Made by a program: the position numbers and the translations under genes
Shown here: positions 21,653 to 57,019 of the stretch, one piece after another
Layout of the letters: every line of letters begins with the position of its first letter
How positions within the stretch are numbered: the first letter of the stretch is position 1
Notes under the pieces: generated by a model
Database searches by the model: none
Seen by the model: the letters and a program-made list of their open reading frames with translations, nothing else
Told to the model about the DNA's origin: nothing
Source: an uncultured Coriobacteriaceae bacterium
GTDB taxonomy: Bacteria; Actinomycetota; Coriobacteriia; Coriobacteriales; Eggerthellaceae
Direction: 5' to 3'
Length of the DNA stretch: 64,000 nucleotides
Assembly (NCBI GenBank): GCA_900550055.1
Contig: URQU01000003.1
Location: 15,661 to 79,660 of the forward strand

Positions 21653-21665
21653 GGAGGGGCAGATC

Positions 21666-22283: not shown

Positions 22284-22294
22284 GAGGTTGCAAA

Positions 22295-23461: not shown

Positions 23462-23475
23462 GGAAAGGCGAGCGA

Positions 23476-24108: not shown

Positions 24109-24351
24109 GCAGAGGTTCGCTTTGCGAGCCCGATAGATGGTGATAAGCGGAGCAGGTGCGCCGATAGGGACGCCTGCTCCGCTTGCTGTTTCGGTGCGAT
24201 GGTCTGCTCTGGCCTGGGATTGCGTTGGCTGCCCCAGGCTTCGCATGGGGGTCTTGCGGCGATTGGCGCTGCGGGAAGCCCGTGCGCGCGGCGGCTGGTA
24301 CAATAGCGCAATCGATCTACGTTATCTTGCAGAACCGAAAGGCCCCATCAC

Positions 24352-25110: not shown

Positions 25111-25178
25111 CGGCCAGCGAGCCTGCTCGATGTTGCGGGGCGCTTTCGCACCCCGCCTTACGGCAGCTGCGCCCGGGT

Positions 25179-25397
25179 GTGAACAGGGGGCGGAGGTATG
25201 TTCACGGGTGTGTTTGGGAATTGCGGGTCTTCGTCGTGAACATGCCTCCGTCCCCTGTTCACGATGAAGATGGCGCGCAAGCGCCTATATTGACTTGGCG
25301 AATCCGTGATAACTTTGGCGGACTCGTGTCAATCGATATGCGGGCCTGCTCGTGAACACGCTTCCGTTCGCTGACCAGGGAACGGAAGCGTTCGATC
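25179..25397. repeat. cluster of GTGAACA-type hairpin / inverted repeats at the chromosome / mobile-element junction
   Basis: 25179-25205 (gtgaacagggggcggaggtatgttcac) and 25236-25262 (gtgaacatgcctccgtcccctgttcac) are near reverse complements of each other, and each is internally hairpin-forming. A third unit at 25352-25397 has the stem cgcttccgttc/gaacggaagcg. Confidence 0.4.
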
Positions 25398-25528
25398 GTC
25401 CCGCTGGTTTCGACAGACCTGCGGTGATTAATCACCGCATCGCATGAAAGGAGGGATGCGCGATGGCAAAGCAGCGTAAGAGTTTCCTGCTGTTCGATGG
25501 CTGCAATTATCGCTCCCTCCTATTTACA

Positions 25529-26158: not shown

Positions 26159-26221
26159 TTCCGGTACGGGCCCCATGGCCCGTGCCTTTTTCATCCCGCA
26201 CATCTGCATAAATACGCATGC

Positions 26222-26250
26222 ACGCATATGCGCATATGCGCATATGCGTA
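26222..26250. repeat. tandem (CATATGCG)x3 alternating purine-pyrimidine repeat
   Basis: The sequence acgcatatgcgcatatgcgcatatgcg holds three NdeI-type palindromes immediately upstream of a promoter-motif copy. Confidence 0.6.
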
Positions 26251-26279
26251 ACCGCACATTTCCGTTTTTACGTGTTTGC

Positions 26280-26312
26280 GCGTTTACGCATCTGCACATC
26301 TGGGTAGATACA
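26280..26312 (+). promoter_or_regulatory. element promoter-motif copy 1 (TTTACG, 16 nt, TAGATA)
   Basis: The sequence is gcgTTTACGcatctgcacatctgggTAGATAc, with the -35-like hexamer at 26283-26288 and the -10-like hexamer at 26305-26310. It lies about 50 nt upstream of the 26364 gene. Confidence 0.55.
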
Positions 26313-26363: not shown

Positions 26364-26732
26364 ATGGGAAGGAAAGAGTCCGCCGGGAATCAGGCCGGCA
26401 CGGCGAGGATGACGGTCGGCGATAGGTTCTGGGCGCGGCGCATCCGTCCGATCTTCGACGACGGCGACCTCACGCTCGAGCAGAAGTCGGTCTTCTGCTG
26501 CATCGTGGCGCGCGACCCCATGTCGGTGGCGATCGAGTGCCCGGCGCGCGACATCGCGGCGGCCGAGGCCGGCCTGCCGCGCCGCGACTACGACGAGGCC
26601 CTGGACGCGCTCGAGCGCGGCGGCTACATCGTCGACATCGTGACGCCCTACGGCGAGGATCGGGACGGGGAACTCTGCATGGTCCCGATCCCCGCCGATA
26701 TCGTGAAGGAGGGGGTGCAGTGCCGTGGGTAG
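26364..26732 (+). CDS. hypothetical protein, first gene of the replication module
   Basis: A GGAGGG RBS sits 7 nt upstream of the ATG at 26364. The 123-aa protein overlaps the start of the rep-like gene. Confidence 0.45.
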   Translation: MGRKESAGNQAGTARMTVGDRFWARRIRPIFDDGDLTLEQKSVFCCIVARDPMSVAIECPARDIAAAEAGLPRRDYDEALDALERGGYIVDIVTPYGEDRDGELCMVPIPADIVKEGVQCRG

Positions 26733-28137
26733 CGCCAAGAGACACGACGCATCGGTGCAGTCCGCCGACCCCACCCGCGACGAGCTCGACGAGACCTTCG
26801 AGATCCTGGACCGCGACGGCGCGGTCGTCGTCTTCGGCGGCGACCTCATGGAGCGCGGCTTCGGCATCGTCTCGGCCAAGGCGACCGAGGACACCCGCCT
26901 GTCGTCGTCGGCCAAGGGCGTATACGCCTACTTCTGCGCCCATGCCGGCGCGGGCACCCATTCGCTGTTCCCGTCCGTGGACACGATCTGCACCCACCTC
27001 GCGATGTCGCGCAACACCTACTACCGCCACCGCCGCACCCTGGTCGAGTGCGGCTACATCAGCGTGCACCAGGGTCGCGCTCAGGGCCGCGGGCGCTATC
27101 TCTCGAACCGCTACGTCGTCAATGCCGAGATCCCCGAGGAGCGCCGTTTCGTGCCTGTCGATAACTCGAAATCGGCCGATGCCGCCGCTGTTGAAAACTC
27201 GCTTGGGGAAGACGCCGAAAACGAAGTTATCAACAACCCGCAGGATTCGCCGTGTACCAAAAATTGGTACACGGGCGACCAAACTAACGTTAGTTTGCAA
27301 CTAGATTCACCGTGTACCAATTTTTGGTACACGGGCCCAACTGGGAAAACGATTTCACCGTGTACCAATTTTTGCGACACTAACAAGGATGTTGTTATTG
27401 ATGTTAGTGAGAGAGGGCGCGCGGGCGCGCTGCCGTCTGTCGAAAACTCGGCGGTGTCGAAGGCCGCGGGCGACTCGGTCACGGTCGTGAAGGTCGCGTC
27501 GGAGGCCGGCCTTGGGCTCGAGACGGAGGTCTCGGTCTCCAACGCCGAGGTGCTTGCCCTCATGCGCATGTCCATCGGCAAGGCGGAGGTCTTCGCCGAC
27601 GTCGCCGAGGCTTATGCCCGTGTGCTGGCGGACGGCTGGACGCTTCCGCGCATCGGCCGCGCCTACGACACATACCGCCGCGAGTACGCGGCATCGCACA
27701 CCGACGGCCGCTACATCATGTCGCTGCCCAAGTTCCTCGCCGCCGGAAACGGCCTGAGGTTCTACGACCTGAGGGCCGATCTTGTCGATTCCGGCGCCGT
27801 GGCCGCGGCCGAGGAGAAGGCCGCCCCGTCGAAGGCGCCGACCCGCGAGCAGGTCCGAAATTACGTGCACGAGAAGGGCTATGACGCCCCCGACCCGGAC
27901 AATCCCGCCTACCGCGTGATCGACCCCGATGAGTTCTTCGACTACTACGAGGCGACCGGCTGGGTCCGGGCGGGCGGCGTGCCGATCGTCCGATGGAAGA
28001 ACGTCGTGAACACCTGGCGCCGCAAGCCCGCGCCGCGCTCCGCCCGTAAGTTCGGCCCGTCCGGGCCGAAGAGGGCCATGAGCGTCGCCGAGCGCGTGGC
28101 CGCCGATAGCGACTTCAGCGAATTCAACGACGACTAG
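26725..28137 (+). CDS. replication-initiator-like protein with an N-terminal helix-turn-helix
   Basis: KGVYAYFCAHAGAGTHSLFPSVDTICTHLAMSRNTYYRHRRTLVECGYI is an HTH of the type found in plasmid/phage replisome organisers. The gene contains palindromic iterons and is followed by a DnaC-like loader. Confidence 0.6.
   Translation: MGSAKRHDASVQSADPTRDELDETFEILDRDGAVVVFGGDLMERGFGIVSAKATEDTRLSSSAKGVYAYFCAHAGAGTHSLFPSVDTICTHLAMSRNTYYRHRRTLVECGYISVHQGRAQGRGRYLSNRYVVNAEIPEERRFVPVDNSKSADAAAVENSLGEDAENEVINNPQDSPCTKNWYTGDQTNVSLQLDSPCTNFWYTGPTGKTISPCTNFCDTNKDVVIDVSERGRAGALPSVENSAVSKAAGDSVTVVKVASEAGLGLETEVSVSNAEVLALMRMSIGKAEVFADVAEAYARVLADGWTLPRIGRAYDTYRREYAASHTDGRYIMSLPKFLAAGNGLRFYDLRADLVDSGAVAAAEEKAAPSKAPTREQVRNYVHEKGYDAPDPDNPAYRVIDPDEFFDYYEATGWVRAGGVPIVRWKNVVNTWRRKPAPRSARKFGPSGPKRAMSVAERVAADSDFSEFNDD
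27249..27410. repeat. iteron-like array inside the rep gene: three 30-bp units built on the palindrome GTGTACCAA-N5-TTGGTACAC, an extra palindrome aaactaac/gttagttt, and a flanking AT-rich stretch
   Basis: Units lie at 27251-27273 (perfect), 27311-27333 (perfect) and 27357-27381 (right half-site degenerate). Each is preceded by gattc(a/g)cc. The palindrome aaactaacgttagttt is at 27281-27296. An AT-rich stretch taacaaggatgttgttattgatgttagtgag follows. Confidence 0.6.
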
Positions 28138-28159: not shown

Positions 28160-29191
28160 ATGAACGACACGCAAGCGCAGGCGAGGCCGGTGAGGCCCAC
28201 GCTCGAGGAAGTCGAGGCCTACGTCCATGGGAAGGGCTACGACGTGCCCGGCGCCGCCAACGCCTTCTACGGCAACTTCTTCTACGCCTACCACGACGCC
28301 CGCGTCTGGCGGCGCGCGGACGGCACGCCGGTGGCCGACTGGAGGGCGGAGGCGGACACGTGGCATGAGAGGGGGCCGCACTACCTCGAACCGGAGCCAC
28401 GCGCCGCTGCCCCGGCACCCGCGGCGTCCGCTCTGGTCTCGGCGCCGGCACCCGAGGCCCCGGTCGCCTCGCCCGAGGCGCTTTCCGTCGGCGGTGCCCT
28501 GCCGCCGCTCGAGGTCGCCGACGTCGCGACCTTGGCCGCGACCGACCGCGCGTTCCATGAGGCGGTGGTCCGCAAGACCGGCATCCCGCCGCGCTTCGCA
28601 CGCCGCATCGCCGAGGGCGAGGCCGCCCCGGAGCATGCCTATGACGCGCGACTCGCGCGCGGCGGCGGGCTGTACATCTACGGCCCGCGCGGCGTGGGCA
28701 AGACCGAGCTGGCGTGCCGTATCGCCTACGACTACGCCGGCTCGCGCCTCGATCCCCGCTTCGGCAACTGGGCGTACCGTCCCGTCCCGAAGGGCAGGCC
28801 CAAGCACGGCGTCAGGTTCGTCGTCTCGGCCGACCTCATGACCGAGCTCCGCTCGACCTTCGACAAGGGAGGGGACAGCGAGGCCGACGTCATCCGCAGG
28901 TACGTGAACGTCCCGGTCCTGATCATCGACGACCTGGGCAAGGACTCCTCGACCCAGTGGGTGCTCGCGAAGCTGTTCCAGATCGTCAACGGCCGCTACG
29001 AGGCCGAGCGCGCCACGATCGTGACCAGCCAGTACACCCAGGCCGGCCTCGCCGCGGTGCTGTCGGAGTACGGCCGCAAGGAGGACGCCCTGGCGATCGT
29101 CTCGCGCCTGGCCGAGATGACCGAGCGCGTCAAGGTCGACGGCCCGGACCGCCGCATGGCGCCCTGCGACGCCGAGGGGGCCGGGCGATGA
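28160..29191 (+). CDS. DnaC/IstB-like AAA+ ATPase (helicase-loader candidate)
   Basis: Walker A is GPRGVGKTELA and Walker B is LIIDDLGKD. The N-terminal 60 aa are paralogous to the C-terminus of the upstream rep-like protein. Confidence 0.75.
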   Translation: MNDTQAQARPVRPTLEEVEAYVHGKGYDVPGAANAFYGNFFYAYHDARVWRRADGTPVADWRAEADTWHERGPHYLEPEPRAAAPAPAASALVSAPAPEAPVASPEALSVGGALPPLEVADVATLAATDRAFHEAVVRKTGIPPRFARRIAEGEAAPEHAYDARLARGGGLYIYGPRGVGKTELACRIAYDYAGSRLDPRFGNWAYRPVPKGRPKHGVRFVVSADLMTELRSTFDKGGDSEADVIRRYVNVPVLIIDDLGKDSSTQWVLAKLFQIVNGRYEAERATIVTSQYTQAGLAAVLSEYGRKEDALAIVSRLAEMTERVKVDGPDRRMAPCDAEGAGR

Positions 29192-32094: not shown

Positions 32095-33501
32095 ATGATG
32101 CTTTTCGAATCTTTGATCTTCAACCTGCTCCCCGCAGCCGTCGGCATCATGGCCGTCGTGCTGGTGTTCGAGAGCTGCTGGCGCAAATGCCCGCCGGATA
32201 AGCTCATGATCGTCTCCGGCGCCGGCAAGATGCGCTCCGTCTCCGGCAAGGGAACCTTCGTGATCCCGCTCCTCCAGCGCGTGGACACCCTCTCGCTCGG
32301 TGCCGTGCAGGTGCAGCTGACCACCGAGAACGATATCCCGACGCAGGACGCAATCCTCATCCACGCCTGCGCCGTGGCGAACTTCCAGATCGGCCAGACC
32401 CCCGAGCTGATCGAGACCGCGTCCAAGAACTACCTGAATTTGGACAAAGAGGAGATGACGCGCCAGGTCACCGAGGTCATGCTGGGCAAGATGCGCGAGG
32501 TCATCGGCCAGATGGACCTCAAGGAGCTCATGCGCGACCGCGAGAGCTTCAACGCGAAGGTCTTCGGCGGCTCCAAGGACGACCTCGCCAACCTCGGCCT
32601 CGAGCTGCGCACCTTCAATGTGCAGGACTTCTCCGACTCCCAGGGCATCATCCGCTCCATGGGCGCCGATCAAGCGGCCGAGATTAAAAAGGAAGCCGAG
32701 CTGGCGCAGATCAAGGCGGCCGAGGAGGTCGCCATCCGCCAGAACCAGCTCGACTTGAAGCAGGCCGACCTCAAGAAGCAGGCCGACAAGGCGAAGGCCG
32801 AGGCCGATATGGTGAAGGCCACCGTGACGGCCGAGAAGCAGCGCGAGCTCTACATCGCCCAGCAGGAGGCCGAGATCGCCGCGGAGACCAAGAAGGTCGA
32901 GCTCGCCGAGCGCCAGGCGGACGTGAGGGAGCGCGAGCTGAACGCGACCGTGAAGAAGCAGGCCGAGGCCGACCGCTACGCCGCAGAGCAGGCGGCCGAA
33001 GCCGACCTCTACAAGCGCACGAAGCAGGCCGAGGCCGCCCGCATCGAGCGTCAGAACCAATCCGACGCCGAGCTGTATTCCGCCCAGAAGGACGCCGAGG
33101 GCATCCAGGCCCGCGCGAAGGCCGAGGCCGAGGCCACGCGCTTGAAGGGCGAGTCCGAGGGTGCGGCCGAGAAGGCCCACGGCGAGGGCGTCGCGGCGGG
33201 AATCAAGGCCCAGGCCGAGGCGTACAACGGCATGGATAACCCCTACCTGCTCGCCAACCGCTACATCGACATCATGCCCAAGGTAGCCGAGCAGGTTGCG
33301 AAGCCCCTCACTGCCGTCGATTCCATCAAGATGTACGGATCGGGCAACGCGCAAAAACTCGTAAAGGAGACTACATCGATTGTCGACCAGGTCGCATCCG
33401 GCCTGAAGGACAGCACGGGAATCGACCTGCCGTCCCTGCTGAACGGTCTGATCTCGAACCCCAATATCGATGCCGACTCCGCCGAGAACTCGGTGGAGTG
33501 A
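32095..33501 (+). CDS. flotillin-family SPFH protein (YqiK/FloA-like)
   Basis: An N-terminal hairpin TM and SPFH core are followed by a long Ala/Glu-rich coiled coil with EA repeats. Confidence 0.85.
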   Translation: MMLFESLIFNLLPAAVGIMAVVLVFESCWRKCPPDKLMIVSGAGKMRSVSGKGTFVIPLLQRVDTLSLGAVQVQLTTENDIPTQDAILIHACAVANFQIGQTPELIETASKNYLNLDKEEMTRQVTEVMLGKMREVIGQMDLKELMRDRESFNAKVFGGSKDDLANLGLELRTFNVQDFSDSQGIIRSMGADQAAEIKKEAELAQIKAAEEVAIRQNQLDLKQADLKKQADKAKAEADMVKATVTAEKQRELYIAQQEAEIAAETKKVELAERQADVRERELNATVKKQAEADRYAAEQAAEADLYKRTKQAEAARIERQNQSDAELYSAQKDAEGIQARAKAEAEATRLKGESEGAAEKAHGEGVAAGIKAQAEAYNGMDNPYLLANRYIDIMPKVAEQVAKPLTAVDSIKMYGSGNAQKLVKETTSIVDQVASGLKDSTGIDLPSLLNGLISNPNIDADSAENSVE

Positions 33502-34963: not shown

Positions 34964-36412
34964 ATGGAAATGGCAGACGGTGACCGCTTTACACCGGAAC
35001 AGGCCGAGGCGCTGAGCGCGCTGAGGGACGGGAGGAACGTGTTTCTCTCGGGCAACGCCGGCACGGGTAAGAGCTACGTGCTCAACGCCTTCATATCGGA
35101 CCTGAAGGCGCGCAACGTCGATTTCCTCGCCCTGGCGCCCACCGGCATCGCCGCGCTGAACCTCACGGACGGCTCGACGATCCACCGCACGCTGAAAATC
35201 GCGCCGGGGGTCTGCGCCCCCGATGGCCCCAAGGGGTCCCGCAAGGTGCTCGACGCCGCGAAGGTAATCATCATCGACGAGATCTCGATGTGCCGCATCG
35301 ACCTGTTCGACCACGTGATGGGGATGATCTCCCAGTCCATGACGCGCAACGGCGCGAAGCAGGTGGTCCTCGTCGGCGATTTCTTCCAGCTGCCGCCGGT
35401 CGTGACCGAACGCGACTCCGCGCTGCTGATGAAGTTCTATCCCGGAAACCTCCAGGGCTGGTGCTTCAAGTCGAGGTACTGGACCGGCTTCGATTTCGAG
35501 CCGCACGTCCTCAAGACGGTCGTGCGCCAATCCGACCCCGATTTCATCGACAACCTGAACCGCGCCCGCGTCGGCGACGCGTCGTGCCTCGATTACTTCA
35601 ACGCGCACTCGAAGAGCTCCCGCGCCTACCTGCCGAAGGACACGCTCGTGCTGTGCGCCAACAACCGCATCGCCGATTCGATCAACCGCGAGAACGTCGA
35701 CGCGCTCGACGCACCGAAGGTCGAGTTCGCGGCCGCCGCGACCGGCACGGTGTCAAACGGCGACAAGATGGCGCCGGAGAGGATCGTCCTGTGCCGCGGC
35801 GCCCGCGTGATGTCGCTCGTGAACAGCCCTCAGGAGGGTTACGTCAACGGCACGCAGGGCACCGTCACCGACGCGTCCGCGGACGCCGTGACGGTCGAGT
35901 TCGACGGGGTGGACGAGAAGGTCCGCATCGAGCGGCACAGATGGGAGATCAACAAGTCCGAGGCCGTCGTCGAGATGGACGATGAGGGCAGGCCCGTCAA
36001 CAGGGTCAAGACCGCCGTCGTGGGTGCCTATACCCAGATCCCGCTCAAGCTCGCCTACGCCATCACCATCCACAAGTCGCAGGGCCTGACGTTCGATGCC
36101 TGCTGCGTCCACACGAAGGTCTTCGCCGAGGGCCAGCTGTACGTCGGCCTGTCCCGCGTGCGCTCCGCCGCCGGCCTCACCGTGTTCCCCAAGATTGAGC
36201 CGAACCGCCTGATCGCCAGCCGCGAGGTCGTGGAGTTCTACGATTCCCTCGAGCACAGGATGGAGGAGCCGGTCCAAATCGTGTGCCCGCGCCGCTACGA
36301 GTCGCGGGTCCGCGCCTACATCCGAGACCTCATGGACGGCAGGGACCCCGACGCCCCCACGCCTCCCGCCCTGGAAGGCGCCCTGGAGAACAGCAAGGCG
36401 AATAAGCGGTAG
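34964..36412 (+). CDS. Pif1/RecD-family SF1 DNA helicase
   Basis: Walker A is GNAGTGKSYV and Walker B is IIIDEISM. The C-terminal motifs ITIHKSQGLTFD and VGLSRV are present. Confidence 0.8.
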   Translation: MEMADGDRFTPEQAEALSALRDGRNVFLSGNAGTGKSYVLNAFISDLKARNVDFLALAPTGIAALNLTDGSTIHRTLKIAPGVCAPDGPKGSRKVLDAAKVIIIDEISMCRIDLFDHVMGMISQSMTRNGAKQVVLVGDFFQLPPVVTERDSALLMKFYPGNLQGWCFKSRYWTGFDFEPHVLKTVVRQSDPDFIDNLNRARVGDASCLDYFNAHSKSSRAYLPKDTLVLCANNRIADSINRENVDALDAPKVEFAAAATGTVSNGDKMAPERIVLCRGARVMSLVNSPQEGYVNGTQGTVTDASADAVTVEFDGVDEKVRIERHRWEINKSEAVVEMDDEGRPVNRVKTAVVGAYTQIPLKLAYAITIHKSQGLTFDACCVHTKVFAEGQLYVGLSRVRSAAGLTVFPKIEPNRLIASREVVEFYDSLEHRMEEPVQIVCPRRYESRVRAYIRDLMDGRDPDAPTPPALEGALENSKANKR

Positions 36413-36475
36413 CGACAACGGAAATGGGAAGGCCGAATCTCCCGGCCTCCCCATTTCATTTTCGCGGGCGGATCG

Positions 36476-39001
36476 CTACCGTCTGCCGGTGAGCTCCCAG
36501 TCCCAGATATACTCCTCGACCTGCTCGGCGAGATGGAGCGGGGCGGGAAGGTTCACCCTCATATCGTTCTTGTAGAGCTGCACCATGCAGCCGCGCAGGG
36601 CCTCGGCGTATTTGACGCTGGCAAGCGCCTCGGCCTCGCCACCGGGCGACAGAAGGCAGTACTCGTTGATCGTCTTCTCGCAGAACGCCGCGGTGGGCGA
36701 ATCGTACTTCGATCCGCGTGCGGACCATTTGTACTGGGCGTCGCCCGGTCGCGGGGCCAACGCGAGGAAGTAGCCGTCCATCTTGAAGAGTCCCTGCTTG
36801 TCGCGCCTGTTCGGCACGGTGCCGTCGTCTGCGCCGCCCGCGGCCACCTCGTCCGTGAACCAGTCGGGGACCTCGCCGTTGAGACCGGAGCGTATACGCA
36901 GGATGCGCAGCTTGCTGCCCGCGAGGCCAAGCGGCTCCTCATAACCGGTCGGTCCGTAGCTCAAGGGTCCCGACTCGAGGCCGGAGTCGCTGATGCCGGG
37001 CCACCAGTCTCTCTGGCGGATGCGGCCGTAGGAGTTGACGAGGAGGAGTTCCGGCCTGTCGCCGGTGGCGCGGACTATGCCGTGGAGCATCCTCTTCAGG
37101 GCCATTCCGTTTGCCCGCTTGCAGGAGTCCGGAAAGCCCTCGGAACCGCTCAGCCGGGCGAACTCGATGAGGGCGCGCCAGTACGGTAGGCTTCCGTCAG
37201 GTAGGAGGGGGCAGTACACGGTGACGGCACCGCTTCTCATGTCCTGTCGGACGCAATAGGGGAAGCTCGCACGCGCCTTGCCGTTGCCGGAGTTGTAGAC
37301 CTTCAACCCTATCGCCGGGATCGAGGTATCGATGCCGCGCGAATTGCGTGCCGGTTCGGGTACGAAACCGAGCTGGCGCATGAGGTCGCGGACGGCGACG
37401 CGCGCGCGGATCTCGGGACTGTCCTTCGAGTCCTCGGGTTCGATGAATTGGGTCAGGCGCCCGGTTTTCGCGAACGCGATGCGCAGGGCGCGCTTGGGGT
37501 CTCCGCCGTCGTCTTTGCCCTTGGGCTTGTAGCTCTCGGCGCCCGGCAGGGCCACTATGCACGCGGTCGGGTCGGTCGCCTCGGGAAGCGCGGCGGCGAC
37601 TTTGCGCCAGCGGATCTTCGCCTGGCTGTCGCCGGTATTCTCCATGCGGTTCAGGAGGTCGTTTGCCGGGATGTTATCGATCTCGACCTCGAAGCCGTCG
37701 ACGGCCCCCTCCCCACCGAGAAAGCGGGAGATCTCGGCCCTTGCCATATCGAGGAGCCGGGCATCGTCCTGGTTGCCGATCAGCTGGAATACGGCCCTGT
37801 CCCTGCCGGTGCAGTGGGCGAGTCTGGCGCGGTTGGCCCGGCCCCAGGTCTCCTGTCTCGCCCGTGCGCTGACGGGGTCCTTGTCCCAATCCGCCTGCCT
37901 GGGTTCCTCTATGGACGCCTTGAGATGGGTCAGTTGAAGCGAGTCGAGCGCACCGACGGGCTCCGCGATATCTTTGAGCCGAGCCGCGACGGCCTCGAAG
38001 AACATGGCCTTGTCGATGACGGATGCCCCGCTTGCGACCGAAGGCTTCGATGCCCAGGAGGCGGTCATCGCGTAGGGGGATAGGATCTGCGGCTGCGAGC
38101 CGTCGCGGGCGTACCTGCCCATGTCCTCAAGATACTCGCGGACTGCGGGCAATCCGGTCCCGCTGGCGAACTCGTAGTTCGCCAGGGCCGCGGGGTCCCA
38201 GGCCAAGTCGCGCTTCTGTTTGTCGTAGCCGTAGGGGACGACGCGGAGCGTGCCGCCTTCCGTGCGGACGTAGGCGTTGACATCGTGTTTGAGGAACGGG
38301 TCGTCCTGCCATGGCTTGCCGATGAAGCGGCGGACGGCGACATCCATGTTGAGCCTTGCCTTGCGGCCGACCGGCAGCGTCTCGACGTGGAATCTGAGGG
38401 CGAACGCCCACGGGTCCTCCTTGTGCCAGTGGATATCGGAAATCAGCTCGTAGACGTTTCCGTTTCCGCGTGAGACTCTGCTGAAGTTCTCGACCATGCC
38501 GTTGGCGAGTTCGAGGGGGATGTCGGCGATGGCGTCGGCGACTTGCGCGGAGAATGCGGGGAAGGTGAGCCTGCCCGTGGGACGGCCGTCGCCGCTGAAC
38601 AGGCGGATCTCTTCGCCACGCACGGCCTCTTCGAACGTCTCGGGGTGCAGCATCCCCATCACCTTGCGGTAGGCGGGGGATTGGGTATCGATGTCCTTGC
38701 GGGAGGAGATCCAGACCGCGATGACGTTGCATAGCTTCGCGAGATCAATGGGGGCGAGGGCGATAAGCCAGCTGTCGGTATGTACGTTGGGGCGTACGGG
38801 ATTCAGCTCGACGGCCCGGTCGAGCCAGCAGCGCAGGTCGTCCTTGAGGACTTTGGTGTTGAGGTAGCCGCCCTCTTTCCTCGGGGGCATGAGCGTGAAG
38901 AGGGCGTCGCGCAGGCTGTCGGGCAAGCCGACGACGTGCACGGTCGTCTTGGTGTCGAGAACGGGTGCGAATGACATGAGGTGCAGCTTAGAGTCCGACA
39001 T
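36476..39001 (-). CDS. large (842 aa) protein, candidate pPIWI-RE-type (prokaryotic PIWI/Argonaute-like) component of a three-gene conflict system
   Basis: The start is placed at MSDSKLHLMSF (ATG 39001), with an AGGAAAGGAA RBS and a 14-nt overlap with the upstream helicase stop. Size, operon position (after a REase and a DinG-type helicase) and lack of other recognisable enzymatic motifs fit pPIWI-RE. The PIWI fold itself is not verifiable by eye. Confidence 0.5.
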   Translation of the reverse strand: MSDSKLHLMSFAPVLDTKTTVHVVGLPDSLRDALFTLMPPRKEGGYLNTKVLKDDLRCWLDRAVELNPVRPNVHTDSWLIALAPIDLAKLCNVIAVWISSRKDIDTQSPAYRKVMGMLHPETFEEAVRGEEIRLFSGDGRPTGRLTFPAFSAQVADAIADIPLELANGMVENFSRVSRGNGNVYELISDIHWHKEDPWAFALRFHVETLPVGRKARLNMDVAVRRFIGKPWQDDPFLKHDVNAYVRTEGGTLRVVPYGYDKQKRDLAWDPAALANYEFASGTGLPAVREYLEDMGRYARDGSQPQILSPYAMTASWASKPSVASGASVIDKAMFFEAVAARLKDIAEPVGALDSLQLTHLKASIEEPRQADWDKDPVSARARQETWGRANRARLAHCTGRDRAVFQLIGNQDDARLLDMARAEISRFLGGEGAVDGFEVEIDNIPANDLLNRMENTGDSQAKIRWRKVAAALPEATDPTACIVALPGAESYKPKGKDDGGDPKRALRIAFAKTGRLTQFIEPEDSKDSPEIRARVAVRDLMRQLGFVPEPARNSRGIDTSIPAIGLKVYNSGNGKARASFPYCVRQDMRSGAVTVYCPLLPDGSLPYWRALIEFARLSGSEGFPDSCKRANGMALKRMLHGIVRATGDRPELLLVNSYGRIRQRDWWPGISDSGLESGPLSYGPTGYEEPLGLAGSKLRILRIRSGLNGEVPDWFTDEVAAGGADDGTVPNRRDKQGLFKMDGYFLALAPRPGDAQYKWSARGSKYDSPTAAFCEKTINEYCLLSPGGEAEALASVKYAEALRGCMVQLYKNDMRVNLPAPLHLAEQVEEYIWDWELTGRR

Positions 39002-42000
39002 TTCCGATTCCTTTCCTGAATGACTCGTAGAACGGCCCGTAGAGGGCTTTGGCGACCTCCGGCTGGTCGCTATCGTGCATGAGGCGTTCCATGTAGGCGC
39101 CGAGCTCTTCCAGGGTCCTGAACGAGAGCTTCCCGTCGCCGCCGCGGAAGGCCGCATCGGCGAAATAGACATGCGGCGCGGGCCTCTCCTTATCGGCAAG
39201 CCTCGCCAGGCGTCCGAATATCTGGATGATCGTGACCATGAGCGTGGAGATCGCGTCGTCTACGAGGAATTGCCTGCCCATGGTCCTCCATGCGCCCATG
39301 GGAAGGTTCTCGTCCCGCTCCATGGTCTTCCATGTGCGCCAGGCGGAGGCCCTGACCTCGGTCGCGAACTCCCCGGGATTGGCCGGGAAGTCGCCGACCT
39401 CCCTTTCGATGAGGCCGTTGAGTTTGCGGTATCGCCCGCCGAGGTCGTGCGGTGTGCCCATCGGCCGCACCGAGAAGATGAGGCTCGTGAACACGGCATG
39501 GCCGCCGCGGTCGACGATATTGAAGCCGCGCTCGATGGCCATGGCCGGCGCCACGAGCACTTTGGCCGGATGGTCGCAGAACTTGTAGACTTCGCTCCGG
39601 GGCACGAAGTGCTCCCTGTGGTCGTGGTTGTTGCGCACCAGGGCCGCGACCTTGATTGCCTGGCCCTTGCGTCGGAACTCTTGCTCGATGCGGTCGCGTG
39701 CGTCCTCGGCCTCCCGGTAGCTGTTCACGATGACCAGGGCCTTTCCCGCGCCATCCGCGTCGAGTTCGTCCCTCAGCGTGGCCATGGTCTGCGATAGGAC
39801 GATGCCGAGGTTGCCGGAACGCATCTCGGCGGCGCTGCCGGACACGTTCTGCTCGATGCCGAGGTCCCTCACGGTCGAGGTGGAGAGCTTGGCCGCCTTC
39901 CACGGCTCCGCCTCGAGGAGGTAGTCGACCGGCCTGTTCACGTGGTATTGCAGGCAGCCGGGCTCCCAGCTCGAACCGGAGAGCAGGAGCACGTGCGGCC
40001 CCAGCGCCGCCCCGGCGGGGTCGGTATCGAGCCAGGGCAGCGAGCACATGAAGGCCCGCCCGAAGGCGAACTGCCGGAAAAGCCTGAGGTCGTTGCCGTC
40101 GAGCTTCATCCCGAAGATGTTGCCGATCAGCGAGTTGGGGAGATAGTGCTGCTGGCGCGTGTAGCTGAACTTGAGGAAGTTGTACAGCTCGTCGACGGAA
40201 TCGTCCTTGAAGCTGAGGAGGTCCTGCGCGGAGGCGAGTTCGCGCAGGTACGAGTCGAACCGGATGACCTTGAGGGCGAAGGAGAACCTGGTCCGCAGCT
40301 CGTCGGGAAGCTCCGAGCATCCGCATGCAGCGAGGTATTCGTTCAACGAGTAGCTGTGGGTGTCGTCGTCGATGCCCTCGCAGGAGGTCGCGACCGCCTG
40401 CGAGAGCTTGTTGAGGGCCGCGTCGCCGCCATCGAGGCTCTTCTTGGCAATCTCGAATCTATAGGGGTTGATGAGTTTGTCGGCATCCTCGTAAACCTGT
40501 TTGGGAAGGCCCTGCTCCAGGAGGTCGTTCAGAAGCGAGAGTGACGTGAACGCCTCGTCCTTGACGATGCGCCATTTCGCCACGCGGTCGTCCCTGACGG
40601 ATTTGAGCAGCGCCTTCGCGACGGGCTCGGATTTCTGGCGCAGGTCATAGAAAAGCTCCTCGTTGAAGTCCCTCATCTTGTCGTCCGGGCGCCGCTTCAT
40701 GGCTACGGCTGTCGGGTCGGCGGCGTTGCGGATGAGCTCCTGGAAGCTCATGCTCGGGGCGAAGCAGCCGTCGAGCTGCGCCTGCACGCGGTCCGCCTCA
40801 TCGAACAGGACGACGTCGAACTGCTGAAGAGCCTCCTCGAAGAATGCCTTGCGCTCCCTTCCGACGATCATGGTGGCGAAGCCGGTGGGAGTCGTGACCA
40901 CGACGTCGGATGTCAGGGACTCGCGGGCCATGGCCTGCGATGGGCACACGTCCCAGTACGGGCATGAGTTCGCGCCGCCCTTCTTGGACCGGAGGCCGCG
41001 GCATGGCGTGCTGCCGTATCCGCAGGCCTCGGGATCGGAAGAGGAGAGCCCGTCCATGATGCAGGCGGTCTCCAGGTATTTGGATGCGGAATGGTCGAGG
41101 AGCATGGAGTCATCGTGGTCGAAGAACTCGTCGAGCCGTTCGATGCGCCTGCCGCGCGACACCAGGGGCGAGGCGCTGATTCCCGCCTCGCGAAGCAGGA
41201 CGACGCTTTCCATCACGTCCGATACCGAGTTGAGCAGGGATACCGCGCGCAGGCCGCGCTTCGCGAGGCAGACGATGAGCATGTTGGCGAGGACGGACTT
41301 GCCGGCGCCGACGAGGCCGACGAGGCTCACGACCTCATCGAGGCGCAGGCCGTCAGCGACGGATGTGCTGCCGCCGCGGGCCCGCTTGAGGAGCCCCTGG
41401 TCCTTGACCCTTCTGAGCACGGCGGCGTAGTGGGTCTTCCCGGTCTTCTCCCCGACTTCGTCCGCGGTCGAGATGAGCTCGTCGAGGGTGATATCGATGG
41501 GCGGGCGCCTGCTCTTGCGGGGGATATCGTCAATCTTGCCCGTTTGGGGCGGCACGGCATCGGGTATGGTCACCCAACGGATCGATCCGGTTACCGTGGT
41601 ATCGCCGGTCGCCTCGGGCTTGCATGTGTAGGAATACCGTCCTTTGGGTCTCGCGACCACGTTTTTATGGGAGAGTTTGACATCGCCGAGGAGGCGGTCT
41701 ATATAGATCGGCATGCGGTCGATCCCGGTAAGGGGGTGCTCGCGCAGGGCCATTCCGCCGTTGGCGATATCGAAGAACCGGTACCGCTCATATTCCGCGC
41801 GCTCGTAGAGGCCCAGCAGTCGCCGCCAGGCCGTGGATGAAGCCAGCGAGAACAGGTGTCGGCGCGCCATCTGCATGAGGTGGCCGTCCGCGCCGATGGT
41901 CTCGGGCCTGATGAGCTGGTAGTTCGATAGGAGCCTGTCGGCCTTTCGGGGATCGGCGCCGGGACCGCATACGCGTACCGCGAGCGCGAGCAGCGACTCC

Positions 42001-42110
42001 ACATTCAGGAACTCGTCGAGGGATAGGTCGCTGTCCTCGGGATAGCGCACCTCGAGATTGCGCTTCAGCTGGTCGAAGCCTTCCTGGGCTGTATCATTCG
42101 GCTCGCTCAT
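38988..42110 (-). CDS. DinG/XPD-type (Rad3-like) SF2 helicase with an Fe-S cluster insertion
   Basis: The start is placed at MSEPNDTAQ (ATG 42110, ATGA-coupled to the upstream gene). Walker A is GLVGAGKS and the DEAD-like box is VLFDEADR. The four-Cys module CIMDG ... CGYGSTPC ... SCPYWDVCP is typical of XPD/DinG Fe-S domains. Confidence 0.7.
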   Translation of the reverse strand: MSEPNDTAQEGFDQLKRNLEVRYPEDSDLSLDEFLNVESLLALAVRVCGPGADPRKADRLLSNYQLIRPETIGADGHLMQMARRHLFSLASSTAWRRLLGLYERAEYERYRFFDIANGGMALREHPLTGIDRMPIYIDRLLGDVKLSHKNVVARPKGRYSYTCKPEATGDTTVTGSIRWVTIPDAVPPQTGKIDDIPRKSRRPPIDITLDELISTADEVGEKTGKTHYAAVLRRVKDQGLLKRARGGSTSVADGLRLDEVVSLVGLVGAGKSVLANMLIVCLAKRGLRAVSLLNSVSDVMESVVLLREAGISASPLVSRGRRIERLDEFFDHDDSMLLDHSASKYLETACIMDGLSSSDPEACGYGSTPCRGLRSKKGGANSCPYWDVCPSQAMARESLTSDVVVTTPTGFATMIVGRERKAFFEEALQQFDVVLFDEADRVQAQLDGCFAPSMSFQELIRNAADPTAVAMKRRPDDKMRDFNEELFYDLRQKSEPVAKALLKSVRDDRVAKWRIVKDEAFTSLSLLNDLLEQGLPKQVYEDADKLINPYRFEIAKKSLDGGDAALNKLSQAVATSCEGIDDDTHSYSLNEYLAACGCSELPDELRTRFSFALKVIRFDSYLRELASAQDLLSFKDDSVDELYNFLKFSYTRQQHYLPNSLIGNIFGMKLDGNDLRLFRQFAFGRAFMCSLPWLDTDPAGAALGPHVLLLSGSSWEPGCLQYHVNRPVDYLLEAEPWKAAKLSTSTVRDLGIEQNVSGSAAEMRSGNLGIVLSQTMATLRDELDADGAGKALVIVNSYREAEDARDRIEQEFRRKGQAIKVAALVRNNHDHREHFVPRSEVYKFCDHPAKVLVAPAMAIERGFNIVDRGGHAVFTSLIFSVRPMGTPHDLGGRYRKLNGLIEREVGDFPANPGEFATEVRASAWRTWKTMERDENLPMGAWRTMGRQFLVDDAISTLMVTIIQIFGRLARLADKERPAPHVYFADAAFRGGDGKLSFRTLEELGAYMERLMHDSDQPEVAKALYGPFYESFRKGIGNVGL

Positions 42111-43309
42111 CGCGTGCCTCCCTTCGCGGCGGCATCGAGTCGTTTCGAGAAGTTGCGCAGCGTTTCGCATGAATAGCCGGTCTTGCCGCGCAGGACGGCA
42201 TTGCATAGCGCGCGATATCCGGGATGGTCCCGTTCGACTTGGTCCGGCACGACATAGGCCACCTCGTCCGCGCACATCTGGGCGATGCCGGTGTCGTCCT
42301 CTATCTCGCGGGCAAGCCGCTCGGCGCGGCCGTATGCCTTGGCGTCGACGGCAAGCTGTCGGCCGTCCGGCAGATGGATCAGGATGTCGCAGGTGTCCTT
42401 GAGGGGCCACATTTCGTATTTCAGACCGAGGCCCGCTGCGGCCTCGGCGATCGCCAGCTCGAGCTTTCCGGGGGAAGAGATGTAGTGCATGACGCCGCGG
42501 GATAGGCGGAAGGCGTCGTGCGCGACGCTGTCCAGCTTGTCGAAATCGCCTGTGACGGCCTTGGCGCACGTCGCCGATGAGCAGTGGGGCTGCTTGCCTC
42601 GCATGGTCATCGTCCAGCCGCAATTCGGGCATACTTTTGCGGCGCCCGGGACGGGTTCGTAGGCCATGGAGACGAATTCCTGCAACCACACCGGGTCGAT
42701 GGTGTCGGCTTCGCCCTGGTCGAGGGGGTCGGGGTCGCCCAGGGCGAGCCCCGTCTTGATCCTGACGTATTCGTTCCAGGTGAGCAGCGGGTGGCGGATG
42801 AGCATCCTGCGTCCGTACACGTATTGCTCCTGGGTGCCGGCTCGGAGGAATTCATACACCCTGCGTTCCTGATGGCCGCCCAAGAGGTCGTTTTCCGCAA
42901 AGCGCAGCACCTCGTAGCATTCCGACGTCGCGGCGAAGTAGTCGCCGTCTACTGACGCCAGGGGCCCGATCTCGATGGACCGGCACCCTTCGACGGCTTC
43001 CCTGCACTCGTCGCGCCACCGGGCCGTCCACTCGCGCACGTCTGACGCTGCGCTGTTCCTGATGAAATCGGACTCATTGAACGTCGGCAGCAGCTCTTCC
43101 GCATCGTCGGAACACTCAGCGCACAGCGCGGCGAGGATATTCATGCCGTGTCTGAATGCCTGGCTGTAGGGATACCTATGCGGGTCGGCCTCGTAGAGGC
43201 CGTCCTTCTCGGCGATGCCGTATGCGATGAGGAATACGGCGGTCTCGAAGCGGTTGGCGATATCGCGGGCTTTGCCGGCGGCTTCGGCCGCGGCGATCGG
43301 GTCGGACAT
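42107..43309 (-). CDS. restriction-endonuclease-fold (PD-(D/E)xK) protein with a Zn ribbon, first gene of the operon
   Basis: The start is placed at MSDPIAAAEAAGKA (ATG 43309, AGAGGTGG RBS). The Zn ribbon is CPNCGWTMTMRGKQPHCSSATC. The C-terminal ILIHLPDGRQLAVDAKAYG gives a PD...D-x-K core. Confidence 0.6.
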   Translation of the reverse strand: MSDPIAAAEAAGKARDIANRFETAVFLIAYGIAEKDGLYEADPHRYPYSQAFRHGMNILAALCAECSDDAEELLPTFNESDFIRNSAASDVREWTARWRDECREAVEGCRSIEIGPLASVDGDYFAATSECYEVLRFAENDLLGGHQERRVYEFLRAGTQEQYVYGRRMLIRHPLLTWNEYVRIKTGLALGDPDPLDQGEADTIDPVWLQEFVSMAYEPVPGAAKVCPNCGWTMTMRGKQPHCSSATCAKAVTGDFDKLDSVAHDAFRLSRGVMHYISSPGKLELAIAEAAAGLGLKYEMWPLKDTCDILIHLPDGRQLAVDAKAYGRAERLAREIEDDTGIAQMCADEVAYVVPDQVERDHPGYRALCNAVLRGKTGYSCETLRNFSKRLDAAAKGGTR

Positions 43310-43495
43310 GGACCACCTCTTTATTGGAATTGGCATACACAGCAGCTTTGATACCCGCCCCCGCCGCGCTTTACACGCCCCTACCGAAACTCGACGGATA
43401 AAAATGCCCCTGCACCGGCTCGAATCGAGTGAAAGACTTCCCGCGCACGGGGTAGAAAAAGCTGGGACGGCACGCATCCGCGCGAAGGGTTTGAC

Positions 43496-44874: not shown

Positions 44875-44919
44875 GCCGCCCCGCTCGCACGTCCACACAT
44901 ATATGTATATGCGCGTCTA

Positions 44920-44952
44920 TGCGTTTACGTACATGCGCATATGGGTAGACTC
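44920..44952 (+). promoter_or_regulatory. element promoter-motif copy 2 (TTTACG, 16 nt, TAGACT)
   Basis: The sequence is cgTTTACGtacatgcgcatatgggTAGACTc. Confidence 0.5.
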
Positions 44953-44980
44953 ACATCGAGTAGAGACGAAACGGGAGGGG

Positions 44981-50142: not shown

Positions 50143-50308
50143 ACCGCCCCGTGATTCAAACTGGGCGAGAACCGAACCGGAGGAATCGCTACGCGTTTCC
50201 CACAACCGGCTGCCTACGGGACGTATGGGGTCCCTCCGGTCATCCGGCCATGGAAAACGCCGGGCTCCGGTGCCAGCCCAATACATAGCCGCACAAACGC
50301 ACATCTAT

Positions 50309-50341
50309 GCGCTTACGCATCTGAGCATCTGGGTACATACA
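50309..50341 (+). promoter_or_regulatory. element promoter-motif copy 3 (CTTACG, 16 nt, TACATA)
   Basis: The sequence is gcgCTTACGcatctgagcatctgggTACATAc, about 55 nt upstream of ssb. Confidence 0.5.
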
Positions 50342-50395: not shown

Positions 50396-50821
50396 ATGAG
50401 CATCAACCGAGTCAACATCACCGGAAACCTCACCCGCGATCCCGAGCTCCGCGCCACCGCGGCCGGCACCCAGGTGCTCTCGTTCGGCATCGCCGTCAAC
50501 GATCGCCGAAAGAACCCGCAGACCGGCGAGTGGGAGGACTATCCCAATTACATCGACTGTACCATGTTCGGCACCCGCGCCGAGGCTGTCGGCCGCTATA
50601 TCTCCAAGGGGAGCAAGGTCGCGATCGAGGGCAAGCTGCGCTATAGCTCCTGGGAGCGCGACGGCCAGAAGCGCAGCAAGCTCGAGGTCATCGTCGACGA
50701 GATCGAGTTCATGAACTCCCGCCCTGCCGCGTCTCCTGCTGCCGCGGTTGATGGTGGACAGCAGTATGCGGTCCCCGAGGCTCCCGCCGTCGAGGTTGCG
50801 GACGAGGACATCCCGTTCTAG
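50396..50821 (+). CDS. ssb: single-stranded DNA-binding protein
   Basis: MSINRVNITGNLTRDPELR is an SSB OB-fold N-terminus. A flexible linker and an acidic tail ending DEDIPF follow. Confidence 0.9.
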   Translation: MSINRVNITGNLTRDPELRATAAGTQVLSFGIAVNDRRKNPQTGEWEDYPNYIDCTMFGTRAEAVGRYISKGSKVAIEGKLRYSSWERDGQKRSKLEVIVDEIEFMNSRPAASPAAAVDGGQQYAVPEAPAVEVADEDIPF

Positions 50822-51058
50822 CCGACCCGTACAACCCCATACTCAAGTGATCGCCCCACCGGAGACGGCGGGGCTTTTTCATGCCGTAGCCCGTCTCCAC
50901 ACGTTTCCCACACCCGGCTGCCTATGGGACGGATGGGGTCCCGCCGGTCATCCGGCCATGGAAATCGCAGGCCAGGGGCCTGCCGACCGGTGTCCGGGCG
51001 GCCCGCTGGGCAAATTATCGAATTACGCAGACGCATATGTGCGCATTTTCGTGTTTGT

Positions 51059-51091
51059 GCGTTTACGCATGTGCGCAGCTGGGTACATACA
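51059..51091 (+). promoter_or_regulatory. element promoter-motif copy 4 (TTTACG, 16 nt, TACATA)
   Basis: The sequence is gcgTTTACGcatgtgcgcagctgggTACATAc. Confidence 0.5.
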
Positions 51092-51430: not shown

Positions 51431-51484
51431 CGGCGCCGGCGGGCAAGAATAAGTAAACGCGCATCCGCACAGGTATGCAGATGT

Positions 51485-51517
51485 GCGTTTACGCATCCGC
51501 ATAACTGGGTACATATA
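51485..51517 (+). promoter_or_regulatory. element promoter-motif copy 5 (TTTACG, 16 nt, TACATA)
   Basis: The sequence is gcgTTTACGcatccgcataactgggTACATAt. A long GC-rich leader separates it from parA. Confidence 0.5.
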
Positions 51518-51660: not shown

Positions 51661-52209
51661 ATGAAGACAATCGTTTTGGTCAACCAAAAGGGCGGCGTCG
51701 GCAAGACGACGTTCGCCGACGAGATCGCCTGGGGCCTCGAGCGCCGCGGGCGTGAGGTCGGCTTCATCAACCTCGACCCGCAGGGCGGCGCGAGTCACGA
51801 GCAGAAGACCGTCGAGGGCGAGAAGGCCGTCACCGTCGTCGACACCCCGGGCTATCTGAACGACAAGCTCGGCGGCTGCGTGGAGGTCGCCGACATCGCG
51901 ATCGTCCCCGTCGAGCCCAGCCAGCGCGGCCTTCGCGCGATGAAGCGCACGATCCAGCTCATCACGGGCGTCAACCCCGAGCTCGAGATCGGCCTGATCG
52001 TGAACCGCTATTCCGACAAGCGAATCATCGACCGCAGCTTTACCGACTTCCTCACCGCCGACGACCTGCCCATCCTGGGCTGCGTGCCGACCGCCGAGGC
52101 GTTCAAGCGCGGCGCGTCGTTCAACCGACCGGTGTCCGAGGTGCAGCCGGGCGGCCGCGCGGCGGACGCGATCGAGGGGATTCTGGACAAGGTGGAGGCG
52201 ATGCTGTAA
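51661..52209 (+). CDS. parA: ParA/MinD-family partition ATPase (small type)
   Basis: It has the deviant Walker A NQKGGVGKTT and is 182 aa. Confidence 0.85.
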   Translation: MKTIVLVNQKGGVGKTTFADEIAWGLERRGREVGFINLDPQGGASHEQKTVEGEKAVTVVDTPGYLNDKLGGCVEVADIAIVPVEPSQRGLRAMKRTIQLITGVNPELEIGLIVNRYSDKRIIDRSFTDFLTADDLPILGCVPTAEAFKRGASFNRPVSEVQPGGRAADAIEGILDKVEAML

Positions 52210-56639: not shown

Positions 56640-56990
56640 ATACGGCCGTGACGGTATCCGAGCCGTATCGGACTTGCAACAGATGAGCAGCGTCCCGTTC
56701 GTCGCGAAAGAGACGAGGGACAGCCGAAACGCGGACGGTATAACGGCATCGGATGACCGGTGTAAACCGGTTTAAACCCAGGCAAATAGGGGTAGGATAC
56801 TGAAAACTTCGCAAGAGACGCATACTTGTACCTCCATCGTAGATGTATGTACAAGTATGCCACCGAAGTCGGTCAGATTTCCGCCACCGGGCACAGCCCG
56901 CCGACGGAAATCTGACCGCCTCCGGCGCTTGCCAGGGCTCCGCCCTTGGACCGGGGTCGCGCACAGGTGCGCGAGGAATTGGAGGAAGCG
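56640..56990. promoter_or_regulatory. candidate oriT / relaxosome region upstream of mobC
   Basis: GC drops locally. A perfect 12-bp palindrome taaaccggttta lies at about 56764-56775. An inverted repeat acttgtac-N17-gtacaagt lies at about 56825-56857. Confidence 0.3.
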
Positions 56991-57019
56991 TGGCAGAAAA
57001 AGCCACCTCGCAGACAAGA

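Follow-up and report, generated by a model that had tools for sequence, protein, structure and literature searches.

A pPIWI-RE operon with a probably non-cutting PIWI protein, carried by an integrated mobilisable element of an uncultured Coriobacteriaceae bacterium

We analyzed a 64,000-nucleotide (nt) stretch of DNA (hereafter, the window; 64% G+C) from an uncultured Coriobacteriaceae bacterium (assembly GCA_900550055.1, contig URQU01000003.1, positions 15,661 to 79,660 of the forward strand), in which three long, overlapping open reading frames (ORFs) on the minus strand span positions 36476–43309. Taking the first ATG with a ribosome-binding site as the start codon, gene A (42107–43309) encodes a Zn-ribbon/restriction endonuclease (REase) protein of 400 amino acids (aa), gene B (38988–42110) a 1040-aa Fe-S helicase of the DinG/XPD type, and gene C (36476–39001) an 841-aa pPIWI-RE protein. 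The stop codon of gene A overlaps the start codon of gene B by 4 nt (ATGA), and genes B and C overlap by 14 nt. An earlier interpretation made from the letters alone (hereafter, the sequence-only reading) had placed the three ORFs of this operon exactly, counting 842 aa for the large protein, and had matched them to the predicted pPIWI-RE system. Both the gene order and the overlaps are those of the defining pPIWI-RE description (Burroughs 2013, PMC3702460), and all three proteins hit Pfam and PADLOC models of the family far above cut-off. The locus is almost certainly a canonical pPIWI-RE triad, with the order REase, DinG-type helicase, PIWI-RE; PADLOC gives this system the class name 'argonaute type III'.

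The gene C protein contains three Pfam domains above their curated cut-offs: pPIWI_RE_X (PF13111; aa 16–399, 1.4e-65), MID_pPIWI_RE (PF18157; aa 463–550, 2.8e-18), and RNaseH_pPIWI_RE (PF13032; aa 564–834, 8.7e-44). The PADLOC model PprPIWI matches it with 1.4e-143. An AlphaFold2 model (predicted local distance difference test [pLDDT] 80, predicted template modelling score [pTM] 0.77) bears out the PIWI/RNase-H fold for which a structure search had been proposed, the best 50 structure matches listed being all full-length Argonaute/PIWI proteins (E about 1e-13, probability 1.0). We found no relative in the PDB by sequence or profile search, using as queries the three proteins and a 90-sequence profile. 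To assess conservation, we aligned 90 diverse family sequences chosen among the matches of an exhaustive phmmer search, which returned about 300 clusters at E ≤0.001. The MID domain (37352..37615, minus strand), delimited by Pfam, has as family-conserved pocket residues R464, D501-P-K503, R507, R515, Q518-F519, D539, and R542-Q543 in 79–90 of the 90 members, and those from D501 onward in at least 84 each, a pattern that would fit a 5′-end-binding pocket. The RNase H-like PIWI domain (36500..37312, minus strand; Pfam RNaseH_pPIWI_RE) carries the family-defining Arg and Glu of the beta-sheet extension (R704 in 89/90, E780 in 90/90). In the predicted structure, its strands at aa 563–571, 578–587, and 592–596 are followed by a helix (aa 607–618) that corresponds to the extra alpha-helix found in this family after the first meander.

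The catalytic residues were located by comparison with PsPIWI-RE of Pseudomonas stutzeri DSM 4166, in which D525 and D610 are essential for catalysis (Huang et al. 2022, PMC10991935). The PsPIWI-RE sequence (783 aa) was translated from the gene printed in the Huang supplement, with D525, D610, R639, and E718 as published, and was aligned to the family both by MAFFT and by hidden Markov model (HMM). R639 aligns with R704, and E718 with E780. PsPIWI-RE D525 ends beta-1 ('VLSILLD'), where the window protein reads 'IGLKVYN' (Y569/N570), and D610 ends beta-4 ('LIVCLDAN'), where it reads 'LLLVNSYG' (S657/Y658). No acidic residue was found at either catalytic position of the window PIWI in either alignment register, and an Asp at the beta-1 position occurs in 0 of the 90 relatives. 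Because the two Asp residues essential in PsPIWI-RE are missing, the gene C protein has no recognizable catalytic motif, as the sequence-only reading had noticed. Given the absence of an acidic residue at the beta-1 and beta-4 positions, the window PIWI is predicted to bind without cutting and is probably a non-cleaving, guide-binding sensor. This prediction agrees with the report that only some pPIWI-RE family members keep the catalytic residues (Burroughs 2013, PMC3702460).

We also considered a slicer-competent PIWI on the basis of residue spacing (D587-85-D672-30-R702-78-E780 in the window compared to D525-85-D610-29-R639-79-E718 in PsPIWI-RE), which was rejected on the direct PsPIWI-RE alignment. 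Window D672 aligns with PsPIWI-RE D622, a residue not mutated in the PsPIWI-RE study, and D587 and D672 show no co-retention across the family. A comparison of an 18-sequence alignment with PsPIWI-RE using hhalign recovered the MID motif only, with a probability of 8%. As a separate observation, the family motif 'QLQxGDD' after beta-5 reads SPGGEAE in the window PIWI (aa 785–791, about positions 36629–36649); the Asp of this motif is present in 75 of the 90 sequences and in most close homologs.

The gene A protein has a Pfam pPIWI_RE_REase match above the curated cut-off (aa 281–398, 9.7e-28), a PADLOC PprRE match (aa 120–377, 6.9e-25), and a weak pPIWI_RE_Y match below cut-off (E = 0.0046). 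The Y domain (PF18156) is present in the gene A homolog of a distant triad with 43% PIWI identity, and the N-terminus of the window protein reads as a divergent, Y-like helical domain, followed by the Zn ribbon and a PD-(D/E)xK REase domain. Residue conservation was examined in a four-sequence alignment of the window protein and those of three other triads (43, 48, and 64% PIWI identity). The Zn ribbon (aa 227–248; 42566..42631, minus strand) has the CPNC...C...C pattern that had been pointed out earlier, and all four Cys (C227, C230, C243, and C248) are invariant. The earlier assignment of D315 of 'LPDG' to the catalytic core did not survive the alignment; this residue is not conserved, and the PD-(D/E)xK core is therefore D308...D322-x-K324, with E298 upstream. 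Within the REase core (aa 281–398; 42116..42469, minus strand), E298, D308 (DTCD), and D322-A-K324 are invariant. The operon encodes no methylase. An identical protein, ACV54792.1, exists in Eggerthella lenta DSM 2243.

The gene B protein matches Pfam pPIWI_RE_Z (PF18155; 1e-34, above the curated cut-off) through a Z domain at aa 27–187 (41550..42032, minus strand), and PADLOC PprDinG over its full length (aa 36–1031, 5.9e-94); it is identical to WP_227155188.1 of Gordonibacter pamelaeae. Its helicase core gives weak matches to typeIV_DinG (1e-08), YoaA (9e-06), and mad3. In an alignment with 19 helicase homologs, invariant residues include G265, G268, G270, and K271 of Walker A (GLVGAGKS, aa 265–272; 41295..41318, minus strand), D437, E438, and D440 of motif II (DEAD, aa 437–440, within FDEAD at 436–440; 40791..40802, minus strand), and Q963, G966, R967, and R970 of motif VI (QxxGRxxR, aa 963–970). 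The sequence-only reading had recognized Walker A, FDEAD, and the Fe-S module with SCPYWDVCP (aa 382–390), all of which are present, and had counted four Cys in the module. The alignment raises this count to five conserved Cys (aa 350–389; 40944..41063, minus strand), four of them invariant (C350, C370, C383, and C389) and one, C363, found in at least 90% of 20 helicase sequences. These Cys follow Walker A and precede motif II, the placement known from the Fe-S domains of XPD and DinG. By alignment, the motifs of helicase, Zn ribbon, and REase core all appear intact in the window copy. The AlphaFold2 model of the helicase (pLDDT 79, pTM 0.79) contains a helical block at about aa 456–654, matching the large helical (arch) insert. 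Foldseek ranks 1–41 with this model are all XPD, DinG, CasDinG, or DdmD (DdmD from rank 11), consistent with the proposed DinG/XPD clade.

For the three proteins together, PADLOC reported the Ppr/pPIWI_RE models, the weak typeIV_DinG and mad3 matches on the helicase, and nothing else. Assignments to Hachiman, DISARM, or type IV CRISPR were rejected; neither Hachiman nor DISARM gave a PADLOC match, and these assignments have no PADLOC support beyond weak helicase-core similarity. The suggestion that the operon is a candidate novel system had to be dropped, because the 2013 supplement already contains this very operon. In Additional file 1, Burroughs, Iyer & Aravind 2013 (PMC3702460) name Elen_0816 of E. 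lenta and GPA_14540 of G. pamelaeae, each with 841 aa, and give the context of Elen_0816 as X+pPIWI_RE<-Z+DinG<-Y+ZnR+RE-like; the E. lenta protein is also the ElPIWI-RE of Table S3 (tree and alignment proteins) in Huang et al. 2022 (PMC10991935). The operon is thus already catalogued and adds no new kind of system, and standard Pfam or PADLOC annotation suffices to recognize it. New in the present analysis are the missing catalytic Asp residues by alignment with PsPIWI-RE, the intact REase and helicase motifs, and the status of the triad as cargo of a mobilisable element.

Upstream of gene A, an intergenic region common to a divergent gene (43310..43495, minus strand relative to the operon) carries a good Shine-Dalgarno sequence, AGAGGTGG. 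This region presumably contains the operon promoter; a scan of it with the sigma-70 consensus found no site. At the other end, the 63 bp that separate the operon from a convergent Pif1 gene contain a G+C hairpin that resembles a terminator by consensus match (36426..36443, minus strand). A tRNA scan and an Rfam family scan found nothing.

To determine how the triad is distributed, we compared homologous loci. The three distant triads have the same gene order as the window, and their flanks are wholly different (AbiEi/AbiEii, a type I restriction-modification system, and HipA/WYL genes). Retention of the triad while its flanks change indicates that it is an autonomous unit and that flotillin and Pif1, which had been noted beside it, are mere neighbors; as system components these two were rejected, being missing from the homologous triads. 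The triad is abundant in human gut metagenomes, where its clusters hold 2,400–4,700 members, and the dominant database clusters (4671, 4135, and 2447 members) have intact ORFs. The PIWI gene with its flanks was found at 98–100% identity in G. pamelaeae, Gordonibacter sp. 28C, Eggerthella sp. AM16-19, and several metagenome-assembled genomes (MAGs) labelled Collinsella. Such identity across genera reflects either recent transfer or binning errors, and the Collinsella MAG assignments in particular may be binning errors.

Polymorphism was counted among eight near-identical loci. The PIWI gene showed 31 nonsynonymous and 21 synonymous changes (ratio of nonsynonymous to synonymous polymorphism [pN/pS] 0.46), the helicase gene 25 and 32 (pN/pS 0.25), and the REase gene 0 and 5 (pN/pS 0, weakly determined from few sites). 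The thousands of near-identical database members of each gene, retention of the triad at 43–64% identity, and the synonymous bias of the polymorphism together show that the three genes are not chance ORFs.

The first 25 kb of the window is chromosomal housekeeping sequence, including a major facilitator superfamily transporter, an ATP-binding cassette transporter, a DEAD-box helicase, capsule genes, a molybdopterin oxidoreductase, and a SpoU methylase. Genes typical of mobile elements start at about 25.5 kb: an HTH_36 Rep-like gene (26725–28137), an IstB/DnaC-like ATPase (28160–29191), a flotillin (32095–33501), a Pif1-like superfamily 1 helicase (34964–36412, plus strand, convergent with the operon), the minus-strand triad itself (36476–43309), an SSB (50396–50821), a ParA (51661–52209), a NikA-like gene (56843–57601), and a MobA/VirD2 relaxase (57603–59663). 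A second candidate defense gene lies at 53811–55631 on the plus strand; its 606-aa product has no Pfam match and matches PADLOC HEC-07 over its full length (1.3e-30). Two metagenomic contigs (L030 and L032) match window positions 18351–25506 at 99.3–99.4% identity and continue past SpoU with an NYN/YacP gene, a glycosyltransferase, YfhO, and rpoB, all absent from the window. These empty sites place the insertion of the element at about 25482–25506, within the 5′ end of the yacP-like gene. The element extends beyond window position 64000, giving it a length of at least 38.5 kb; its right end and any integrase fall outside the window. The triad lies 11–18 kb inside the insertion, as cargo of a mobilisable element of Eggerthellaceae that is integrated in the chromosome and that some conspecific genomes lack.

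The sequence-only reading had described the surroundings as a plasmid-like element beside flotillin and Pif1. Both neighbors and the mobile character are real; the element is integrated in the chromosome rather than being a plasmid, and the neighbors are not conserved partners. A chromosomal example is CP089333.1 (3.57 Mb), and a megablast of the operon DNA against a plasmid collection returned no match. The neighboring genes lack cas domains. A direct-repeat scan of positions 23400–62000 gave at least 60 repeat families, and none of the 20 largest resembled a CRISPR array; no dedicated scan for CRISPR arrays or tandem repeats was run.

Several further features of the element were observed. 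The Pif1-like helicase has 482 aa in the window and 614 aa in most of 16 related loci, being split in two of them; the shortening reflects a 396-bp (132-aa) in-frame deletion close to the 3′ end, with short microhomology of the CCTTGC type at its borders. Intergenic repeats of about 60 nt (..TTTACGCATCTG..TGGGTAnATACA) occur at 26197–26312, 44894–44953, 50282–50341, 51032–51091, and 51458–51517, upstream of several genes of the element, SSB and ParA among them, and a 78-nt repeat pair with 88% identity lies at 50186–50263 and 50894–50971. These repeats may be element-specific promoters or operators. Within the HTH_36 Rep-like gene, three 33-nt direct repeats (27244–27384), each with the palindrome GTGTACCAAnnnTTGGTACAC, are spaced by 60 and 48 nt; they are iteron-like and may mark the replication origin of the element.

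What the triad does has been addressed by prediction and by work on a single protein. Restriction of invading DNA by the helicase and REase, guided by RNA or R-loops, was predicted for the family by Burroughs 2013 (PMC3702460). PsPIWI-RE, the sole biochemically studied member, has been characterized by a knockout and in vitro; its dissociation constants for DNA and RNA guides are 20–90 nM, and it acts only on DNA/RNA heteroduplexes (PMC10991935). The earlier statement that these modules have no experimentally established mechanism is therefore only in part accurate: literature searches found no defense assay of a complete triad, and the statement has to be amended for the PIWI-RE protein. Reviews still call the role of pPIWI-RE postulated.

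We favor a guided-defense mechanism, in effect a three-protein version of the logic of DdmDE, and give this reading a probability of roughly 0.5. The PIWI-RE protein would hold the 5′ end of a short nucleic-acid guide in its MID pocket. Through this guide it would recognize invading DNA of complementary sequence, probably in the form of a DNA/RNA heteroduplex where DNA is transiently unwound, at R-loops or elsewhere. Because the two Asp essential in PsPIWI-RE are missing, the target would be bound without being cut. The bound target would then recruit the Fe-S, DinG/XPD-type 5′–3′ helicase, which would load on the displaced strand and translocate, and the Zn-ribbon PD-(D/E)xK nuclease would cut the DNA. 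The analysis shows the identities of the domains, the folds, the intact motifs, the operon structure, and the mobile context; guide use, the type of guide, the order of recruitment, and the anti-plasmid or anti-phage outcome are what we infer here. In favor of this reading are the family-model matches, the two predicted folds, the conserved R704, E780, and MID residues, the intact REase and helicase motifs, the retention of the triad amid changing flanks with AbiE, type I restriction-modification, and HipA/WYL genes, the mostly synonymous polymorphism, the variable presence of the element with its relaxase, NikA, ParA, SSB, and Rep-like genes, the near-identical copies in Gordonibacter and Eggerthella isolates, the model of Burroughs 2013, the guide binding of PsPIWI-RE, and the precedent of DdmDE. 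Loss of the slicer Asp while helicase and REase stay constrained raises the more specific and more tentative idea that the triad is a 'split DdmDE', in which a guide-loaded, non-cutting PIWI-RE marks the DNA of plasmids or integrative and conjugative elements (ICEs) for a separate helicase and REase, and a mobilisable element thereby eliminates rival replicons across gut Coriobacteriia. We regard this version as possible, with the odds somewhat against it.

A number of observations weigh against guided defense. Full-text searches of the literature to mid-2026 found neither a defense assay of this operon or of any complete pPIWI-RE triad nor a triad structure, and the sole in vivo phenotype, that of the P. 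stutzeri PIWI-RE knockout, is ciprofloxacin sensitivity with a cell-division defect (PMC10991935), which speaks for a role in replication or chromosome biology and not in immunity. The inactive-PIWI call depends on a sequence-profile alignment with a register ambiguous by one residue. A tblastn search of plasmid and phage collections with the PIWI protein found no homolog. Broken copies also exist: the helicase of CP089333.1 carries a nonsense codon (E553*), a 1-nt deletion fuses helicase to PIWI in a related locus, REase-helicase fusions of 1440 aa occur, and at least seven distinct in-frame internal PIWI deletions were found in related strains and metagenomes, one of them a 288-bp (96-aa) deletion at GGCCGTCG microhomology in 19 contigs. 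This broken or rearranged set (loci L002, L003, and L014/L015; proteins P0003–P0015, P0029, P0034, P0035, and P0243–P0249) may include some assembly artefacts. It suggests recurrent loss of function, and the presence of broken copies in some lineages indicates that the system is dispensable and possibly costly.

Alternative roles were weighed against the same evidence. Instead of attacking invaders, the triad could serve replication or chromosome maintenance by helping to resolve difficulties in replication or transcription (R-loops, catenanes, or termination), either in the host or in the element that carries it, a role that has been proposed for PsPIWI-RE and some long prokaryotic Argonautes (pAgos). 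The PsPIWI-RE authors propose a complex of DinG, REase, and PIWI-RE in replication (PMC10991935), the ciprofloxacin sensitivity of the knockout points the same way, DinG helicases act on R-loops (Burroughs 2013, PMC3702460), and the locus stands amid replication-type genes of the element (HTH_36 Rep-like, DnaC-like, SSB, and Pif1). A maintenance role is nevertheless unlikely in our view, given the patchy distribution, which resembles that of horizontal gene transfer, the flanks that differ between homologs, the absence of the element from some conspecific genomes, and the tolerance of inactivated copies; in addition, a stand-alone REase without a methylase is more typical of conflict systems (Burroughs 2013, PMC3702460). 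We likewise consider it improbable that the triad is an inter-element competition or addiction module that excludes rival plasmids and ICEs or stabilizes the element, with any host benefit incidental. This proposal gains from the position of the triad, 11–18 kb into an insertion that measures at least 38.5 kb and carries relaxase, NikA, ParA, and SSB, from its movement with the element between genera at 98–100% identity, from the HEC-07-like candidate defense gene (1.3e-30) on the same element, and from the anti-plasmid nature of DdmDE, the closest solved analog. It loses ground because the distant homologous triads are not linked to this element or to conjugation genes and no signature resembling a toxin-antitoxin system is present; moreover, its mechanism is the same as that of guided defense, and only the beneficiary differs.

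The operon might also be decaying cargo without function, an inactive relic in this lineage. The lack of catalytic Asp residues in the PIWI protein, the family 'GDD' motif after beta-5 that reads GGE-A, the nonsense, deletion, and fusion variants of related strains, and the 132-aa in-frame deletion in the adjoining Pif1 all speak for decay. Against them stand three ORFs that are intact both in the window and in the dominant clusters (4671, 4135, and 2447 members), invariant catalytic motifs in helicase and REase, and pN/pS values below 1, with zero amino-acid changes in the REase, although just five synonymous sites varied there. Furthermore, loss of slicer residues is the norm in the pPIWI-RE family and in functional systems such as DdmE. 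We therefore judge a functionless relic to be very unlikely.

Among the Argonaute-related systems of prokaryotes, pPIWI-RE is one of the last without a demonstrated biological role, and its triad has never been reconstituted. Abundance in the gut, a variably present element that crosses genera, and an apparently sensor-only PIWI make the present locus a reasonable experimental model. Demonstrating the 'split DdmDE' idea would give the pPIWI-RE class as a whole its first in vivo function and mechanism.

Compared to known systems, the window triad agrees most closely with pPIWI-RE as described by Burroughs 2013 (PF13032, PF13111, and PF18154–PF18157; PADLOC PprRE, PprDinG, and PprPIWI), with which it shares gene order, overlapping termini, the X-MID-PIWI, Z+DinG, and (Y)-ZnR-REase architectures, and the two conserved residues, R and E. 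The differences are not essential ones: the window has a divergent Y domain, and its PIWI is among those that lack catalytic residues. PsPIWI-RE shares the family and the triad context, with a dinG gene that overlaps piwi-re by 4 nt and a MID motif (DPK...QF) common to both, whereas its catalytic D525/D610 are replaced by Y569/N570 and S657/Y658 in the window protein. The two are distant, PsPIWI-RE having a profile score of 69.6 bits and falling outside the 150 best of about 300 phmmer matches (E ≤0.001).

Outside the family, the long-B and short pAgo systems (such as SPARTA and BPAN) likewise couple an inactive PIWI sensor to a separate effector nuclease or enzyme. However, they lack a helicase, have APAZ or fused effectors, and act mostly by abortive infection, and pPIWI-RE is a separate, very divergent PIWI family. 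In type IV CRISPR systems, the DinG-family helicase CasDinG/Csf4 is recruited by a guide-bearing effector, and the window helicase matches it weakly in sequence (typeIV_DinG 1e-08) and in fold; the window helicase differs by its N-terminal Z domain, and the guide binder in the window has a PIWI fold and is not Cascade-like. In the DdmDE system of Vibrio cholerae, a DNA-guided, inactive pAgo loads an XPD-like helicase-nuclease on the displaced strand, and 5′–3′ translocation degrades plasmid DNA (Loeff et al. 2024 and related structures). DdmD fuses the helicase to a C-terminal nuclease and has an INS domain without an Fe-S cluster, whereas the window encodes separate proteins and four invariant Fe-S Cys; DdmE comes from another pAgo clade and has domains of the N/APAZ type, whereas the window PIWI has an X domain. 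With its separate genes and a helicase that resembles DdmD in fold alone, the window triad lies outside DdmDE proper. Nevertheless, both combine a guide binder of Argonaute fold that is inactive (in the window, by prediction), an XPD/DinG-like 5′–3′ superfamily 2 helicase, and a PD-(D/E)xK nuclease, and DdmDE is the closest solved mechanistic analog of the window triad.

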